Source: Candidatus Thiovulum karukerense (GTDB lineage Bacteria > Campylobacterota > Campylobacteria > Campylobacterales > Thiovulaceae). Taken from it: a stretch of 34,342 nucleotides of DNA. Shown here in pieces: positions 2 through 10,466 of the stretch; positions within the stretch are counted from its first letter, which is position 1, and the number at the start of each line of letters is the position of its first letter. The notes beneath the pieces were generated by a model. The model was given only the letters and a program-made list of their open reading frames with translations. It ran no database searches and was not told the origin of the DNA. The DNA is taken from NCBI GenBank assembly GCA_024281215.1, contig JAMJTX010000026.1, positions 1 through 34,342 on the forward strand. Direction: 5' to 3'. Both the position numbers and the translations under genes were made by a program.

Positions 2-2044
2 CATTACACTATATATGCTTTTATTAACATCACTTTTAGAAAGCTGATCAATTGAATAGACTTTTGTGATTGAACCAAGTGCTAATTTATTACTAGATTC
101 AACTCTAGTTAGAATATCATCATCTCCATTCTCTTTAATATCAAAGTTTCTATTTTCATCATTAATGGTTGTCATATATACATAATCACCACTCTCTTTA
201 GACTTAAAGTCCCCAAAGGTTAAAGTTGTTGCAATAGTGTTAGCTGTATTTCCATTACTAACTGTTTTTGAAATATAGTTACCATTACCTGTATAGTCAA
301 TATATAGATTTTCATCTGCTCCAAGAGTTGTATCATCAACTCTAAATGTTTTAGTAAATGTATTATCTAAAATATAGAATGGAGTGTTTCCAACAAGAAT
401 AACAGAGTCTTGGAATCCATTGATATCTAAATCAACAATAACATCATTAATAATATCTACTGAGCCACTTGAAAAATCCGTAGTTAAATCTGCAATATTA
501 TCTTCTGTAACATCAATTTCAGTTGTATTTATTTTGACTTTACCTAGTTCAATGGTTCCACTATTCAAAGGTGTATTAGCAGTAGTTCCATCACCATTGT
601 TATTTATAGAAGCTACTAATGTATATTCACCATATCTTGAAGCTACACCAGTATCCGTTAAGTTTGCAACAGCAATATATGAATTTGATGATAGATCATA
701 AGGATCTTGATCTCCAATTGTTCTTACAATATCAAATACATCGTCATCATTACCTCCACTATCTTTATCATAAACCCTAAACCGTCTGTCTGATAAAATA
801 ACTATTTTTCCTGTTAGCTCAGTATCATCGATTGGGAATGCTCTAACATTAAAATTTTTAGACAGCTCTCCCTTTTCAATACCAGAGCTAATTTGATTAT
901 TAATAGCTCTACATACCTCTTGAGGATTTACCCCATTAGCATCAATAGAGTATAAAGTGATGGATATACTCTCTTTACCTGTCTCATCAGTGATAGTAAA
1001 TTCATCATCAACTGCTTGATTAGATAATTTTAATATCAATCCTGTTGATGAGTGTCGAAGATAACCATCTGGAAATGAGAGCATATTCCAGCCACTTGAT
1101 AAGAGAGGGTGTCCGCCATATCGACTAGTATTGTTTCCATCTGAAAGAGGGTAGTAAGTTTTAGAGTATGTTGTAAGAGATATATTTCCATCTCCAAGAA
1201 TTAGACCATGCTGTGTTGTAGCTTCAGTATCGTCATGGAGTTTTACCCAATATGCACTTCCTGCTGTTAACTCTGTAAAATCATTTGAGCTATCAGCTAT
1301 CTCAGAGTAGAAGCTCTCCCAAATAGATCTATTAGAGTCTAGCCGAAATACTTTTATCCAGTCATCACCAACAGTAAGATCATCTCTGTGAGCAGAGTCT
1401 CTATCATAATCCAGAATATCACCAGATTGACCATCTCTCCCTGGATTGTTTGTGAAGTCCATATCTATCAATTTACGAATCTTAAATGTGTAATCAGATG
1501 TAGCCACTTTTAAGGCTGACAGAGTCATTGGATTGTCAGAAGTGTGGGAAGAGTTAAAATAGCCATAATAGACTCTATTATCATTAAGGTCTGTAATAAC
1601 TTTTAAGTGAAACATTTCACCCTCAAGGTTTGCCTGATACTTCACTTTTATATCAGCAGTTCCACTGTTGTCACTATCGATAAATATCTCTCGTCGTGGT
1701 TGGTAGCTATCAATTGAAAAACCATCTCCATTAAATGAGAGAGTAATTGTATTGAAGTCTGTATCTGTCACCTCAAAACCGACTAGATGAGTTGTTGCAT
1801 TATATACAGCTAGAGTTCCACCATCAGCAGTTCCTATATAACTCCCATCGTTAATGCCACCATCAACCTCAGTCCCATAGTGCCAATCCCCGCTCGTTGT
1901 AATATCACCACTTCCAGAACCCTCCATAAAAGCCCCTGGAACACCTATAAGTTTCCACTGGTCGTTAGGCAAAACAACCTCAACAAGATTATTTGCACTT
2001 AGTCCAATAAAAGCTACTAGAGAAAAAAGTCTTAATATCTTCAC
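2..2044 (-). CDS. Large secreted surface protein, 3'-truncated by the window edge (>681 aa); paralog of the 1353-aa protein at 6168..10229
   Basis: Not in the ORF track. Manual translation: GTG at 2044 overlaps the upstream TGA (GTGA), and no in-frame stop occurs down to base 2. It begins MKILRLFSLVAFIGLSANNLVEVVLPNDQWKLIGVPG (signal-peptide-like) and shares ordered motifs with the 1353-aa protein (NNPG, YDRDS, ELTAGSAYWVK, GLILGD, GWNMLSFP, RAIN, FNVRAFP, YGEYTLV). Confidence 0.9.
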   Translation of the reverse strand, partial: MKILRLFSLVAFIGLSANNLVEVVLPNDQWKLIGVPGAFMEGSGSGDITTSGDWHYGTEVDGGINDGSYIGTADGGTLAVYNATTHLVGFEVTDTDFNTITLSFNGDGFSIDSYQPRREIFIDSDNSGTADIKVKYQANLEGEMFHLKVITDLNDNRVYYGYFNSSHTSDNPMTLSALKVATSDYTFKIRKLIDMDFTNNPGRDGQSGDILDYDRDSAHRDDLTVGDDWIKVFRLDSNRSIWESFYSEIADSSNDFTELTAGSAYWVKLHDDTEATTQHGLILGDGNISLTTYSKTYYPLSDGNNTSRYGGHPLLSSGWNMLSFPDGYLRHSSTGLILKLSNQAVDDEFTITDETGKESISITLYSIDANGVNPQEVCRAINNQISSGIEKGELSKNFNVRAFPIDDTELTGKIVILSDRRFRVYDKDSGGNDDDVFDIVRTIGDQDPYDLSSNSYIAVANLTDTGVASRYGEYTLVASINNNGDGTTANTPLNSGTIELGKVKINTTEIDVTEDNIADLTTDFSSGSVDIINDVIVDLDINGFQDSVILVGNTPFYILDNTFTKTFRVDDTTLGADENLYIDYTGNGNYISKTVSNGNTANTIATTLTFGDFKSKESGDYVYMTTINDENRNFDIKENGDDDILTRVESSNKLALGSITKVYSIDQLSKSDVNKSIYSVM

Positions 2045-2643
2045 ACACTCTCCCTATCTATATAGTAATCTGTAATCTCTGTATATAGTTCAATTTCGTC
2101 ATATCGGAATATCTTTTCAACTATTGGTTCAAAAAAATCAACCATCTGTTGAGGAATAATAGGAGTTGCAATATAGATAGACTCAATCTTAAATACAGAT
2201 GATATCGTTGCTATTGCTGTCTCCATTCGTAAACCAGTCTCAACTGCTTCATCAACTAAAATAACTTTTTCAACTGTTTCACCTATCTTTAAGTTATCTC
2301 GATTGCCTCGAATAGCTTCAACTCTCGGCATAAGTTTATAGTCATAAATAACATCAATACTATTTAAAAGCATCTCCCGTTCAAGTTGAAAAGCCTCTTT
2401 AAGAACATCGTCAATAATTATAGTTTTAAATTCGCTAACCATAGCTATTTCACAATCAGAGTTCTTTTGGCAAAATACAGGCTCTAAAAATAGTCTTTTA
2501 TTTGGAATTTGAAGATGCTTAGAGAGAATTTTAGCTATCTGCTCCCCACTCTCTGAAATTGCAACAAGAAGCCAATTTTTATCTTCCAACTCCCCGATTG
2601 TTTCTAAGAGTTTTAGTGAAGCATCTTCGATATTTTGAAACAC
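2041..2643 (-). CDS. Phosphoribosyltransferase-fold protein with degenerate PRPP-binding loop
   Basis: ILVDEAVETGLRM resembles the PRTase hhhDDxxxTGxT loop, followed by IYIATPI. Abuts mlaD upstream and overlaps the start of the surface protein gene. Confidence 0.7.
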   Translation of the reverse strand: MFQNIEDASLKLLETIGELEDKNWLLVAISESGEQIAKILSKHLQIPNKRLFLEPVFCQKNSDCEIAMVSEFKTIIIDDVLKEAFQLEREMLLNSIDVIYDYKLMPRVEAIRGNRDNLKIGETVEKVILVDEAVETGLRMETAIATISSVFKIESIYIATPIIPQQMVDFFEPIVEKIFRYDEIELYTEITDYYIDRESV

Positions 2644-4020
2644 TTATAGACCTCCTCCAGCAGCTCCCATAAATGCTTTAAGATCGTTATCAATAAAGTA
2701 GAACCCAACTCCCATAAATAGCGCAGAGTGACTATTAATTAAGTTTGTCCCACCTACTAAGAGATCGATATGGTCATAGACTCTATATCGCAATGAAGCT
2801 TTTAAATTTGCTCCATCATTTCTGATATCATTTACAGCATTAAAATCAAATGCTTCAAGTGAAAATTTAAGCTTGTCTGCAAAAGCGAAGAAGTCTATAC
2901 CTAAACCACCTGTACTTTCAATCAATCCAGCTCGGAACAACCAATCACCATACCTTTTTCCATACTGTGCAGAGAAGAGAGTCTCTCCATCTTCATGAAG
3001 CTGACTTCCCTTAATTGTTCCATCAGACTTGTACTCATCATAGACAGGAGCATTAACAAGTGAGAAGAGATAGTATGTATTTGGATTTGGAAGATAAGCG
3101 ATATTTGTATATGTTGAGAAAGTCTCATCTCGGAAATTATGCTCAGCCCTCATCGAGAATTGAAGCTCAGATTTTGTTAATGATAAAATAATTTTATCTA
3201 ACTCTTTAATAGTCTCTTCACCCTTAGAAAAGAATCCTTCAACAGAGTCTAAGCTATTTATTAGAGGCTCTTTTGCATCACTAACAGTTCCGTTTAGCTC
3301 TGTTACAAGAATCTGAATTGAATCTAGCACCTCAGGAAGTCGTCTATCTAAATTTGCTCCAACAGAGTGGTATTTATCAAGGGTTCTTTCAAGAGATTCT
3401 ATAACAGCTGGAAGATTTGATGAAGCACTCTCTATATTTGTTACTGTATTTTTTACTCCATCTCTATTCTCTTGAATAACCCCCTTAAGATCTCGGAGGA
3501 TTGTGGCAAGATTAGATATTGCTCCCTCTAACTCATCTCGTCTATCTTGGTTGAGGGTACTTCTAATCTCTTGAGCAAGTTGTCTAAACTCCTCTGATGT
3601 CTGGAAAAAGCTATCACTTGTCTTCTCAAAAGATGCCAACTTTTTATATCTTTTAATAAATGAGCCTTCACCAAGGTAGATTGGTGAGTGACCTCTATTT
3701 ATAGCTACTATTTTACTTCCAAGAAGTGACTCTTGGACAAGTTGCACCTCTGAATCTTTTGGTATCTGATACCCATTTTCAATAAAGAGGTTTAAGACAA
3801 TAAAGTCATCAGCCATTGAGAATGACTCAACCCAACCGATAGAGATACCATTCATCTTAACTTTAGAGTTAATTTCAAGACCAGTTGAATCATCAACAAA
3901 GACCTGAACTCTATACCCCTCTGCATTAACATTTTTAAACTCACTAACTTGAGTTGTCAATAGAAACAGCATTGCCAAACCAAGAACAACGAAAAAACCA
4001 ACTTTTGCCTCTACACTCAT
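2644..4020 (-). CDS. mlaD: MCE/MlaD family protein, long form (TM anchor, MCE domain, helical stalk, beta-rich C-terminus)
   Basis: EAKVGFFV N-terminal TM; MCE motifs GLEINSKVKMNGISIGWV and SLLGSKIVAI; long amphipathic helical region; C-terminal aromatic beta-strand pattern. Confidence 0.85.
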   Translation of the reverse strand: MSVEAKVGFFVVLGLAMLFLLTTQVSEFKNVNAEGYRVQVFVDDSTGLEINSKVKMNGISIGWVESFSMADDFIVLNLFIENGYQIPKDSEVQLVQESLLGSKIVAINRGHSPIYLGEGSFIKRYKKLASFEKTSDSFFQTSEEFRQLAQEIRSTLNQDRRDELEGAISNLATILRDLKGVIQENRDGVKNTVTNIESASSNLPAVIESLERTLDKYHSVGANLDRRLPEVLDSIQILVTELNGTVSDAKEPLINSLDSVEGFFSKGEETIKELDKIILSLTKSELQFSMRAEHNFRDETFSTYTNIAYLPNPNTYYLFSLVNAPVYDEYKSDGTIKGSQLHEDGETLFSAQYGKRYGDWLFRAGLIESTGGLGIDFFAFADKLKFSLEAFDFNAVNDIRNDGANLKASLRYRVYDHIDLLVGGTNLINSHSALFMGVGFYFIDNDLKAFMGAAGGGL

Positions 4021-6167: not shown

Positions 6168-9100
6168 ATGGCTGGAAAACTAGGTAGGCTACTTATAGCC
6201 TTTATGCTATTCAACACACTCTTATCCGCTGAAAATGATCTGAGTCCAAAGTATGTTCGACTCTTTTCAAATGATAGTAGTGGTGATGGTGTATGGCAGA
6301 TGGTGGGTGTTGCAGGTTTTTATAACAACATCTATGGAGTTGGATTTGATGAAAAAGTAGGGAGTAATGTATATACAGCTTTCTACTGTGATGACAATAG
6401 TGAAGACTCGATTATTAGGGCTAAAGTAGTTAATTCTGAGACTAATGATGACGAGATGAGAAACCGATATTGGTTATTCTCTGTATCTCTCCAGAAGAGT
6501 GTCACAGGATATGAGCCTCTAGTTGTTGATATTGCATCATCTAACTTAAACTGTTCAACAGTCGGTCAATATAATGGTGTTCCATCACTGGAGAAACCAG
6601 TTGAAGAGCCAAATGGAACAGATGTGATGATTAACTTTATTCATGCTTCAAATGTTAACCCAACTGTTGTATTCTCATTAGGCTATGATCTCGATACTGA
6701 GGGGAAAGATATATATAGCATTACTATCGATGATGATGCGACACCTGTTACATTAAGTTCATTGGCAATGGATCAGACAACTCAGACTTACTCATCAATT
6801 ATCTCAAATATGAGTGTAAAAAAGCAGTCAATTGGTAGTATTGTTGATCTATATCTTAATGATAACCCTGGTTTTGGTAGTGCAGATGATAACTCAACAA
6901 ACTATGATAGAGATAGTAGAGAGTTTGTCTCTGTAAATCATCAAGTACCTATTGATGAGAGTAACTTCCTAAGTGATGAGGTAACTCTGACTATATATAG
7001 TTATGAAGATGCTGATGGTGATGATACAGTTGCATCACGAAATAGTTGGCAACTATACAACAACAAACGACCTAGTGCCGAAAACGGATTTAATGAACTT
7101 CAAGCTGGTAGAGGATACTGGATGAAGTATGACTTCTCTGCTGATAGAACATCAACATTTATTCAAACACTAGATCTAAACTCTAGTTGTGGTAGAGGTT
7201 GTGAAAGTAACTTAACTATTAGCATGAATGGTGATCTCAATAGCACTAACTACCAATTTACAGATAGTGATGTTGATTCAATAGTTTCTGTTCTTAATGA
7301 TACTAATGTCTCTAGAAATGGTGTTGCAGAAGTTAATATATCTGCTGTTAAGATAGCAAACAACTCTATCCTTATTCGAGCTATTGCCGGTGCAAAGCCT
7401 ACTCTTAAAGAGGAGAAGGTTGATGGTGTTACAAAAAATATCTTTTTAAATATTAAAAATGCAACTACTGCATTCTCTAATACAGAAGATATTAAAGCCG
7501 GTCTTGTTCTTGGTGATAGTAGTGTTGTATTAACATCTAGTTCCGTCTATCCACAAATTGTAAGAGAGGGTTGGAATCTATTAACTCTGCCAACTTCAAC
7601 AATTCGAGAGAGTGTTACAGGATTAATGATTGACTGGACAGCTCCAGACTTTAATAAACTTCAGATTAGTGATCACTCTGGTGTTAATGTTGTTGATGTT
7701 ATTGATTCAGATAGTAACCTTTTAATGGATCAAGCTAGTCTAAGAGACTCAGCAAGAGCAATTAATCAAGCTATCTATAAAGCTCAAACATCAGGAACTC
7801 TCTCAACTCAGTACTTTAATGTAAGAGCTATTCCAGTAACTGATGCTAATGATGTGAATAAAATTATGTTGATATCTAATGATCGATTCTCTATTGCAGT
7901 TGATAAAACTGGTCATAGTAGTTTTACAGGAAAAGTTTTATCACTAAATGGTAATGATAAAAATATTAGAGATACATCTATTGTATCAAGTGATGCAAAT
8001 TTATCAACATCAACTTATGGAGAGTATGCTCTTGTTTTTGAACCTAACCTCAACTCTCAATTTGTTAAAGATGGTATCGCTTCATTTGAGATTAATGGAC
8101 ATAAAATAGCTATTGCAGCTAATGCAACTCTAAATTCTCTAAAGAATCAAATTAATGGTGCAAATATTGATGTTAATGCATCTGAGATAGACTCAGATAT
8201 AGATGGAACGATGGATAGACTTCTTATAACATCAAGCTCAGTTATATCTATCAGGGATACAACTTATACAAAAGTTTATAAATTTACACCTAATCTTATT
8301 GGTGATGTTACGGTATCTCTTCATAAAGGGACAGATTTAGATGGTGAAGTACTTAATTCAAGAGTTACTGTTGCAAAAGATAAGAATATCTCTACATCAT
8401 CTTACACTCAAAATGGGACTTATCTAGATGGTGAAGTTACAAAGAACTATTATAGTTATATAGTAGATAAAGATGGAAATGGAACAATTACTGGAAGTGA
8501 GACAGAATATATTGTTTTAGTTTCGCAAACTCCTGACCTATATCTCAGAGAGAGTGCAGAGTCAAACAACACAGATGATAGCCTTGAAGAGAACCTCTCT
8601 TATGATAAAAATGTTTCAACAGCCGGAGCAATTTTAGGTGCAATTCACGGTGGAACATTTGCAACTGTTGATCTTGATAGCAATGGAGATATCAATAGTA
8701 GCAAACTTGGTGAAAGAAATGTGACAGCAAACAAGTTTATTACAGATGACCTTTTAGTCTCAAATGCTCTTATTACTCTCTATAATGCATTTGCAAATAA
8801 AGAGACAAAATATGTTCCTACTATGATCATTGGTGGTGAATCAAATGTAGATACTGGTATTATCAAATGGCAGAAACTATCACCTATTCAACAGATTAGT
8901 AAATGGTATAAAGATTACAACCTTTTCCATACTAATAACCAAAAGGGTTACTGGGTATATCTTGATAAGTACGACTCAAATAACAGTCTTGTTAAAGTGT
9001 TGATAGAGGAAGATATCGGTTCTGGTATTGAGGAGAATGAAGTCCCAACCGTTACAAAACAGTATATTAGAAGTTTTGATAATGAGCGCAATACTACAAC

Positions 9101-10229
9101 AAATATGTTTGACCTTGATATATCCGCATTTGTTAAAGGTGTAAAGACAACAACAGATAGTAATGGAGATACAGTAGCAGATGAGAGTAGTCTTTTTGTA
9201 TCAGCTCAACTTGTAGGTGTCTCAGATGCTCTTGAAGCTCTTGAGTTTAAAATGCCTATAAATAGTTCAACTGAGGATTCTGCTCCAACAGTTGATGGAA
9301 TTAGAGAGTTCTCAACAGAGATTAACTACTTTGATGTTGATGGTCTCCATAGAGATATGTTAAGTGGTCTAACTCAATTAACAGGTATTAAAATTACTGC
9401 AACAGATGGGCGACTTGATACAGATGAATATACAATTCCTCTTGATGTAACAAAGCCTAAAAAACCTACTCTTGAGTTTAAGACAACAGAGCCTAGAGAT
9501 ATCTTTATTACAGCTGGTGATGTCAATGATACAGTTAAATATCTCATATTTAAAGATAGAATAGATGATATTAATGGAACTGTTATCGATAGCTCAAATG
9601 GTATAAATATACCATCTAACTTTATTATGGAAGTTAATAGAACAGATGGGGAGAGTGGAGTTGGAGGACTTTGCCAACACCCTACTTTTAGTGGTGACAA
9701 CTTAGAGTATGCTTCTCTTATTGTTCTTGCTCTTGATAACCAAGATGATACTCAAGCAAACTTCTCTGATATGAAACGAATCAACTTCTTACCTATGAGA
9801 GATAGCCATGTTTTAGAGAGTACTTATGCTAATGGTTCTACAACTGAAAGAGACGAAGTACCAACTATCTACAACTCATCTTGTGATAATGACGGTGACT
9901 TAACAGATAGTACAGGTGAAACAATAAATAGTGGGATTAGCTTAAAATCTCTTAATGGAGAAGTTCGTATAGCTTACCGAGGTATTGAGGGTGAAAAGTT
10001 TGCTCAAGATCTACCAAATACAATAGTTGTGGGTGTTGTTGGAAACTCAACAGTAAGAGTTGCTGAGATTAAGTATATTGATAGATATGTTGGTAAAAAC
10101 TTCTATATCTCTTATAACGGAAAGATTTATGGTCAAACTTTCCCAACAACAGCAGATTCTGAAAACTATTTAGAGACACCATATCCATTAAACTTAGTCT
10201 CAAATAGTGGGCAGATAATAGGTGATTAA
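6168..10229 (+). CDS. Giant secreted surface protein (1353 aa), predicted heavily N-glycosylated; function unknown
   Basis: SD GGGGAGG, Sec-like signal (RLLIAFMLFNTLLSA), acidic S/T/N/D-rich beta-type composition, 20 D/E-x-N-x-S/T sequons, paralogous to the gene at 2..2044. Confidence 0.9.
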   Translation: MAGKLGRLLIAFMLFNTLLSAENDLSPKYVRLFSNDSSGDGVWQMVGVAGFYNNIYGVGFDEKVGSNVYTAFYCDDNSEDSIIRAKVVNSETNDDEMRNRYWLFSVSLQKSVTGYEPLVVDIASSNLNCSTVGQYNGVPSLEKPVEEPNGTDVMINFIHASNVNPTVVFSLGYDLDTEGKDIYSITIDDDATPVTLSSLAMDQTTQTYSSIISNMSVKKQSIGSIVDLYLNDNPGFGSADDNSTNYDRDSREFVSVNHQVPIDESNFLSDEVTLTIYSYEDADGDDTVASRNSWQLYNNKRPSAENGFNELQAGRGYWMKYDFSADRTSTFIQTLDLNSSCGRGCESNLTISMNGDLNSTNYQFTDSDVDSIVSVLNDTNVSRNGVAEVNISAVKIANNSILIRAIAGAKPTLKEEKVDGVTKNIFLNIKNATTAFSNTEDIKAGLVLGDSSVVLTSSSVYPQIVREGWNLLTLPTSTIRESVTGLMIDWTAPDFNKLQISDHSGVNVVDVIDSDSNLLMDQASLRDSARAINQAIYKAQTSGTLSTQYFNVRAIPVTDANDVNKIMLISNDRFSIAVDKTGHSSFTGKVLSLNGNDKNIRDTSIVSSDANLSTSTYGEYALVFEPNLNSQFVKDGIASFEINGHKIAIAANATLNSLKNQINGANIDVNASEIDSDIDGTMDRLLITSSSVISIRDTTYTKVYKFTPNLIGDVTVSLHKGTDLDGEVLNSRVTVAKDKNISTSSYTQNGTYLDGEVTKNYYSYIVDKDGNGTITGSETEYIVLVSQTPDLYLRESAESNNTDDSLEENLSYDKNVSTAGAILGAIHGGTFATVDLDSNGDINSSKLGERNVTANKFITDDLLVSNALITLYNAFANKETKYVPTMIIGGESNVDTGIIKWQKLSPIQQISKWYKDYNLFHTNNQKGYWVYLDKYDSNNSLVKVLIEEDIGSGIEENEVPTVTKQYIRSFDNERNTTTNMFDLDISAFVKGVKTTTDSNGDTVADESSLFVSAQLVGVSDALEALEFKMPINSSTEDSAPTVDGIREFSTEINYFDVDGLHRDMLSGLTQLTGIKITATDGRLDTDEYTIPLDVTKPKKPTLEFKTTEPRDIFITAGDVNDTVKYLIFKDRIDDINGTVIDSSNGINIPSNFIMEVNRTDGESGVGGLCQHPTFSGDNLEYASLIVLALDNQDDTQANFSDMKRINFLPMRDSHVLESTYANGSTTERDEVPTIYNSSCDNDGDLTDSTGETINSGISLKSLNGEVRIAYRGIEGEKFAQDLPNTIVVGVVGNSTVRVAEIKYIDRYVGKNFYISYNGKIYGQTFPTTADSENYLETPYPLNLVSNSGQIIGD

Positions 10230-10259: not shown

Positions 10260-10466
10260 ATGCTAACAGCAATTGCAGCACTACTTGTCGCCTCCCTTGT
10301 GGGGGGGGTTTTTGGCTCTGTGGCAACATACACCTATGTTGATTCATCTGAAGGTAAGTATTGCGATAGAATGAGTGATGAAGTAACTCCTGATGAGGAG
10401 TTCTATAATGAATATGGCACAACAGAAAATTATAACTCTGGAGAAGACGGATACGAAGGGTATTGA
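10260..10466 (+). CDS. Small membrane-anchored or secreted peptide (68 aa) with acidic Tyr-rich tail
   Basis: Strong SD (GAAGGAG), hydrophobic N-terminus with GxxxG (GGVFG), and stop TGA 1 nt before the lipoprotein ATG at 10468. Confidence 0.6.
   Translation: MLTAIAALLVASLVGGVFGSVATYTYVDSSEGKYCDRMSDEVTPDEEFYNEYGTTENYNSGEDGYEGY
10291..10313 (+). terminator. Terminator-like hairpin or G8 tract inside the small ORF
   Basis: CCTCCC-TTGT-GGGGGG then GG and TTTTT, about 60 nt after the stop of the 1353-aa gene. Confidence 0.4.

Follow-up and report, generated by a model that had tools for sequence, protein, structure and literature searches.

We analyzed a 34,342-nucleotide stretch of the Candidatus Thiovulum karukerense genome (contig JAMJTX010000026.1, positions 1 to 34,342 of the forward strand; hereafter the window). 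Among the sequencing runs listed for it none is RNA; two DNA runs carry the label mangrove metagenome, and one of these may have yielded this DNA. An intact open reading frame (ORF) on its plus strand, at 6168..10229, encodes a predicted exported protein of 1353 residues, P0001, which is dense in the extended sequon D/E-x-N-x-S/T recognized by the bacterial N-glycosylation enzyme PglB. The first 21 residues (6168..6230, plus strand) form a predicted Sec signal peptide with K4, R7, a hydrophobic core and a putative cleavage site between LLSA and EN. This N-terminus, read from the sequence as MAGKLGRLLIAFMLFNTLLSA followed by EN, was classed as a signal peptide by our own crude rule. An N-terminus with a signal peptide is conserved in 17 of the 18 homologs that we aligned, the exception being the N-terminally truncated P0023. 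The public gene call, P0005 (1309 residues), begins at M45 of P0001 and leaves out window 6168-6299 with the signal peptide, whereas the sequences of the 17 homologs speak for the longer start.

A regular-expression count on the translation returned 34 N-x-S/T sites (x not Pro), 20 of which have the form D/E-x-N-x-S/T without proline at -1. A 21st acidic site, EPNGT, was left out because of its proline at -1. The same 20 pentapeptides had been found by a manual scan in a preliminary description of this DNA, whose estimate that about 60% of roughly 34 sites have an acid at -2 also agrees with our count of 20 of 34, against a D+E frequency of 0.140. That description had proposed a shuffle test. 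In 5000 composition-preserving shuffles of P0001, 2.97 ± 1.69 extended sequons were expected and the maximum was 11, so that none of the 5000 reached the 20 observed; the binomial probability of at least 20 of 34 at D+E = 0.140 is 1.5e-9. The total number of N-x-S/T sites was 21.7 ± 4.0 in the shuffles versus 34 in P0001, a value reached by 0.2% of them, and the surplus consists entirely of the acidic class.

The preference is tied to a single position. With EPNGT counted, D/E is found at -2 in 21 of the 34 N-x-S/T sites, and in 2-5 of 34 at each of the offsets -5, -4, -3, -1, +1, +3 and +4; in the control class N-x-(not S/T), D/E occupies -2 in 16 of 81 cases. The sites do not originate from repeats, since only four 5-mers recur and the spacing is irregular (6-221 residues). 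Perfect tandem sequon repeats of the Cj1433 type were absent from P0001 when 5-mer recurrence and spacing were checked.

Several of the sites are grouped. Cluster 1 (residues 336-392; 7173..7343, plus strand) contains N338, N348, N358, N380 and N390, mostly 10 residues apart, and sits within a predicted β-sandwich domain; of the 18 homologs, 12 keep N338, 12 keep N348, 9 keep N380 and 13 keep N390. Cluster 2 (residues 798-853; 8559..8726, plus strand) comprises the five extended sequons at N800, N809, N815, N843 and N851, lies partly inside a stretch that was modeled with low confidence and is probably flexible, and keeps N800 and N815 in 13 homologs each. The best-conserved site is DKNIS (N740; 8379..8393, plus strand), an extended sequon that occupies the same alignment column in 17 of the 18 homologs. 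N740 is located in predicted coil, in a block with a predicted local distance difference test score (pLDDT) of 84.

Homologs of P0001 and turnover of its sites

A database search with P0001 gave 19 non-self matches. We aligned 18 homologs, leaving out P0024, with a query coverage of 8%, and P0005, which is P0001 itself from M45. The 18 proteins are 1199-1377 residues long, share 36-49% identity with P0001 and are all unannotated. Each of them carries between 11 and 26 extended sequons, with per-protein p values of 2.5e-4 to 1.8e-15. Sequons turn up in 81 columns of the 19-sequence alignment; nine of the P0001 sites each recur in 9-17 of the 18 homologs. The picture suggested by the alignment is that of a family that keeps its site number through a conserved core of about nine sites plus turnover of the others. 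The preliminary description had suggested a surface protein under selection for dense glycosylation. The strong excess that persists in all 18 homologs fits selection for glycan density and upholds that part of the proposal; the word surface goes too far, as it is export alone that the sequence predicts.

Full-length orthologs were found in all five genomes of the family to which the window belongs, and none in the 25 other families searched, bar a weak C-terminal match in one genome. A related-locus search across the genome contigs found one relative only. The order of ligA, P0001 and the lipoprotein gene is kept in relatives, with ligA found upstream of the ortholog in genomes G003 and G001 and a homolog of the lipoprotein P0003 (43% identity) directly downstream of it in G003. 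In a further genome, G004, the ortholog is split into open frames of 982 and 384 residues (L008/L012, G004:C1:1229946-1233871), which may reflect a frameshift, a pseudogene or a sequencing error.

The window also contains a distant paralog of P0001 (2..2044, minus strand), 681 residues of which are visible before it runs off the contig end (BLASTP, 26% identity over 321 residues, E 5e-18). Four of its nine N-x-S/T sites are extended; the earlier figure of about three was right in order of size and not in the exact number. This paralog is directly downstream of phosphoribosyltransferase-like and MlaD-domain genes on the same strand (2041-4020). A third paralog, on contig C163, has 8 of 22 N-x-S/T sites in extended form. 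An exhaustive phmmer search with P0001 residues 190-720 against 1.84 billion representatives recovered 50 proteins. The 44 new superfamily members among them have 0-21 extended sequons per protein (pooled, 382 of 827 N-x-S/T sites), and the excess is significant at p < 0.01 in 27. No Pfam family was detected in any of the nine members scanned, and a cluster look-up for six members gave no names.

PglB and acidic -2 sites in the exported proteome

A six-frame scan of the genome (1.87 Mb, 191 contigs) revealed a single ORF with the WWDYG motif, at C41 5346-7544, encoding 732 residues. The same ORF is the genome's only STT3 match (76.7 bits, above the Pfam cut-off), scores 557 bits (E 7e-167) against the NCBIfam model ProtGlycPglB and aligns almost end to end with C. 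lari PglB (3RCE; HMMER, E 8e-132), with a similarity of the 35-50% type. On this alignment, on which the catalytic and -2-binding residues were counted by hand, the equivalents of D56, R147, D154/D156, E319 and R331 are conserved together with WWDYG. In C. lari PglB, R331 is the salt-bridge partner of the -2 Asp, according to the accessible text of PMC4894442. The search for pglB that the preliminary description had recommended thus ended with the gene in hand and its catalytic and -2-binding residues kept. Substrates of PglB are exported to the periplasm, carry at least one D/E-x-N-x-S/T sequon (x not Pro) and occur in a genome with pglB; P0001 has a predicted Sec signal peptide, 20 such sequons and a pglB gene in the same genome.

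The G+C content of the pglB contig is 0.360 versus 0.355 for the genome. The gene stands without a surrounding pgl cluster, and its neighbors include a GspG pseudopilin gene about 4 kb away (C41 821-1279). As for the donor pathway, a gene for a PglC-like small phosphoglycosyltransferase was found on C77, and one for a PglF-like dehydratase adjoins that of a PglE-like aminotransferase on C81. Upstream of the PglC-like gene, the ORF at C77 10576-12375 resembles a PtuA-like ATPase in its C-terminal half (NCBIfam E 5e-37, below the cut-off) and may be an anti-phage defense gene.

To place P0001 in its genome we used 1614 ORFs from our own crude caller, assigned to classes by a crude signal-peptide/transmembrane rule. 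In the whole genome D/E is found at -2 in 955 of 3950 N-x-S/T sites (24.2%), versus a D+E background of 14.2%. Signal-peptide proteins reach 36.7% (background 14.6%), proteins with several transmembrane segments 26.2% (9.9%) and the remaining proteins 17.5% (14.8%). At offsets -5, -4 and -3, genome-wide, D/E is at background, and in the exported-protein controls it occupies -2 in 13.6% of N-x-nonS/T and 13.7% of Q/D/S/G-x-S/T triplets. When proteins with at least 10 sequons were removed, the signal-peptide class still showed 27.4% D/E at -2.

Eighteen ORFs have at least 10 extended sequons, and the top ones reach 50 of 65, 32 of 53, 28 of 49 and 22 of 25 N-x-S/T sites. P0001 takes 5th place among the 18 in sequon count and 19th place among 1105 ORFs in density. 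Its 20 of 34 differs from the exported-class rate of 0.36 with p = 0.006, and its density, 1.48 extended sequons per 100 residues, is about four times the exported-protein mean of 0.38. P0001 is no special case within its own genome; what selection acts on appears to be the entire exported proteome. Two prepilin/pseudopilin-like ORFs are likewise dense in sequons (C185 7457-8431, 10 of 12 extended; C44 5231-6034, 9 of 9).

STT3 was found in 36 of 41 genomes searched across the order, including all five of the window's family. We sampled 320-400 kb from each of five relatives and ran the same scripts on exported proteins only. Where STT3 was not found, D/E at -2 was 24 of 187 (12.8%, background 12.8%) in G014 and 7 of 114 (6.1%, background 10.7%) in G030. 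Where STT3 was present, it was 101 of 283 (35.7%, background 12.8%) in G004, which belongs to the window's family, 17 of 54 (31.5%, background 12.9%) in G008 and 44 of 211 (20.9%, background 11.0%) in G018. The acidic excess was thus seen in none of the two sampled relatives without STT3 and in all three with it, and the comparison runs as glycosylation by PglB predicts. The paralog family of P0001 was found in none of the five STT3-negative genomes searched, so the same protein could not be compared with and without the enzyme. In G004, a complete genome, two adjacent ORFs (L050 2361-4814 and 4777-7407) carry 40 sequons in 817 residues and 32 in 876, the densest among the ORFs scanned.

Fold of P0001 and neighboring genes

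P0001 matched no curated family in Pfam or NCBIfam, including autotransporter, S-layer SLH, RTX, T9SS and PMP types, and a search of the ESM Atlas gave no usable match. One sequence-profile match in the PDB was rejected as chance (E = 0.48). Modeled in two halves with AlphaFold, P0001 is mostly β, with mean pLDDT of 67.8 and 71.4. The C-terminal half matched FN3 pairs of cytokine receptors (Foldseek probability 0.99, about 240 columns, template-modeling (TM) score to target about 0.3; models with pLDDT 68/71) and, in a model of moderate confidence, complement MG-domain arrays. As modeled, this half resembles tandem Ig/FN3-like sandwiches. For the N-terminal half Foldseek found no credible match (TM score to query at most 0.12). 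P0001 belongs to an unannotated family with a probable, mostly β-sandwich fold. In the predicted secondary structure, 13 of the 20 sequon asparagines are in coil, 5 no more than two residues from the end of a strand, 1 in mid-strand and 1 at a helix start.

A terminator-like hairpin (10290..10309, plus strand; a consensus match only) begins 60 nt past the P0001 stop codon. Inside it is a run of eight G residues (10301-10308), the sole G/C homopolymer of at least 7 in the window, and variation in its length might change read-through into the lipoprotein gene P0003. A promoter scan gave 23 matches versus 29.9 in shuffles, and therefore no promoter was called. P0003 (10393..12135, plus strand) has its likely start at M26 and a lipobox, LLSGC, at residues 43-47. 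Past the lipobox, tandem acidic repeats rich in Ser, Asp, Asn and Pro extend over about residues 60-125, and no known family was found in Pfam or NCBIfam. Five of its 10 N-x-S/T sites are extended. The next gene, P0004 (12154-15132), encodes a β-helix protein with Chlamydia PMP repeats (Pfam E 3e-18). An acid at -2 is present in 7 of its 26 N-x-S/T sites (p = 0.05), and its sequon richness is therefore attributed mostly to the repeat and not to a PglB-type pattern. For both neighbors the counts are those given before, about five and about seven.

Probable many-site glycosylation of P0001 and its alternatives

We consider it probable that P0001 is a Sec-exported, mostly β-sandwich protein that is N-glycosylated by the genome's single PglB at many of its 20 sequons. 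The signal peptide would carry the chain through the inner membrane, and PglB, working at the periplasmic side, would transfer en bloc a pre-assembled, undecaprenyl-diphosphate-linked oligosaccharide to the sequon Asn, with the acidic -2 residue read by the Arg equivalent to R331 of C. lari PglB. Selection would hold the number of sites high while many positions drift, and since the number is kept and the positions drift, the likely role of the glycans is that of a dense coat and not a site-specific function. Such a coat may serve solubility, protection from proteases, phages or predators, or adhesion properties.

The system itself is the already known general N-glycosylation by PglB. Like substrates from Campylobacter and Helicobacter, such as H. 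pullorum HgpA and C. jejuni CgpA as presented in the accessible text of PMC6025236, P0001 is predicted to be Sec-exported and has D/E-x-N-x-S/T sites and a PglB of the same family. The same text gives 6 sites in 5 N-glycosylated proteins for H. pullorum and more than 60 glycoproteins for C. jejuni. These figures agree with the earlier statement that known substrates carry few sites, to which Cj1433 is the exception. In the part of PMC4879521 that is accessible, the N-terminal repeat of Cj1433 ("GlycoTag") has 9 tandem sequons, to which PglB adds up to 9 glycans in E. coli, and for this reason multi-site loading of P0001 appears feasible. P0001 resembles Cj1433 as a natural protein with many PglB sequons. 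However, Cj1433 has nine perfect tandem copies of KIDLNNT, whereas the 20 sequons of P0001 all differ and are spread over about 900 residues of predicted folded domains. It is in these dispersed, non-repeat sites in folded domains that P0001 departs from the known system. Unlike the few-site substrates, it has 20 predicted sites, and its genome-mates up to 50, all known here from sequence alone.

Archaeal S-layer and similar heavily N-glycosylated surface proteins are large and exported; a single-subunit enzyme of the STT3 family modifies their many N-x-S/T sites, and the glycans are believed to serve as a protective coat. P0001 shares with the archaeal S-layer glycoproteins the large exported chain, the many N-x-S/T sites and a single-subunit STT3-family enzyme, but it differs in having a bacterial PglB and the extended acidic sequon, and no S-layer domains were detected in it with Pfam and NCBIfam. 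There is also a likeness to the glycan shield of HIV-1 gp120, as described in the abstract of PMC2920574, in that the P0001 family keeps its sequon number while positions shift; viral shields differ in enzyme, cell biology and selective agent, so the analogy is one of evolutionary pattern only. Our literature search, with most subscription journals and supplements beyond its reach, found no description of hyper-sequon proteins outside Campylobacter, nor in environmental Campylobacterales.

Three other explanations of the sequon excess have to be considered. P0001 is rich in the residues of the motif (S 10.4%, D 9.1%, N 8.7%, T 8.5%), as chance or composition would require, but the excess is confined to offset -2, and the shuffle maximum of 11 versus 20 together with the binomial value rules this explanation out for practical purposes. 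A structural or metal-binding motif of β-sandwich proteins, such as Asx/ST turns or calcium-binding loops unrelated to glycosylation, is improbable. It would suit a β-rich protein with many loops, five of whose sequon asparagines are at most two residues from a strand end, and the 16 of 81 N-x-nonS/T triplets of P0001 with D/E at -2 (19.8%) are slightly over 14%. Yet the excess requires S/T at +2, as both exported-protein controls indicate, and it is missing from the exported proteins of the two sampled relatives without STT3; moreover, the turnover of sites over 81 alignment columns is not expected of a motif that determines a fold. The main rival, although an unlikely one, is that the sequons are real PglB targets of which only a minority is used, most of the 20 having arisen, with little consequence for P0001, as exported proteins throughout the genome drift toward sequons by mutation or selection. 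In its favor, 7 of the 20 sequon asparagines are predicted in strand or helix, the sequon residues are barely more conserved than others, and the comparison with the exported-class rate reaches only p = 0.006. However, it would be hard for 18 of 18 homologs at 36-49% identity to hold 11-26 sequons each without selection on their number, nine positions are common to at least half of them and N740 to nearly all, and the density of P0001 is about fourfold that of the average exported protein.

Several observations weigh against many-site glycosylation by PglB, and they concern the enzyme, the sites and the comparisons. The 557 bits of the C41 protein are below the NCBIfam equivalog cut-off of 1300, which makes it a PglB-family member and not the NCBI "equivalog" of the Campylobacter enzyme. 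Its specificity for an acidic -2 is a prediction from the conserved R331 equivalent, which according to the accessible text of PMC4894442 does not set the -2 rule alone. The part of the donor pathway that was covered consists of the PglC-, PglF- and PglE-like genes. In the predicted secondary structure the sequon asparagines are not enriched in coil (13 of 20, versus 83 of 118 for all Asn), and a mean pLDDT of 68 and 71 marks both models as no better than moderate. Conservation of Asn is 0.44 at sequons and 0.44 elsewhere, that of D/E 0.53 versus 0.42 (p = 0.13) and that of S/T 0.59 versus 0.42 (p = 0.03), so that the alignment shows no clear extra conservation at sequons over the same residue types elsewhere. 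Crude rules were used both to call ORFs and to classify signal peptides, and several proteins that are clearly exported landed in the "cyt" class; because the N-termini of several high scorers there are plainly those of signal peptides or prepilins, the classes probably differ more sharply than the counts indicate. The STT3 comparison is no statistical test, since the genomes behind it, 2 negative and 4 positive, are related to each other. Finally, the occupancy of the sites is something we infer, as are the structure, final location and purpose of the P0001 glycans.

The genome statistics reveal the apparent in vivo specificity of PglB in an uncultured organism: an acid at -2, S/T at +2, mainly exported proteins and no excess without STT3. 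Bacterial glycoengineering might draw on compact natural multi-sequon domains as multi-site acceptor scaffolds; one candidate is the segment of P0001 at residues 336-392, where five sites follow one another at intervals of about 10 residues. A broader reading, which we put forward only tentatively and think rather doubtful, is that in this family of environmental Campylobacterales much of the exposed surface consists of hyper-N-glycosylated proteins. Each genome would encode about 18 such exported proteins with 10-50 PglB glycans each, including the three-paralog family of β-sandwich proteins of about 1300 residues and the pilins. Selection would then target how densely the glycans are set and not which sites carry them, the result being a bacterial counterpart of archaeal S-layer glycoproteins or viral glycan shields, and P0001 would be among the most heavily N-glycosylated bacterial proteins known. 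Should the sites prove to be used, P0001 and the other sequon-dense proteins of its genome would lie far above the site numbers of characterized PglB substrates, and general N-glycosylation in free-living Campylobacterales would be a coat-building system and not an occasional modification.

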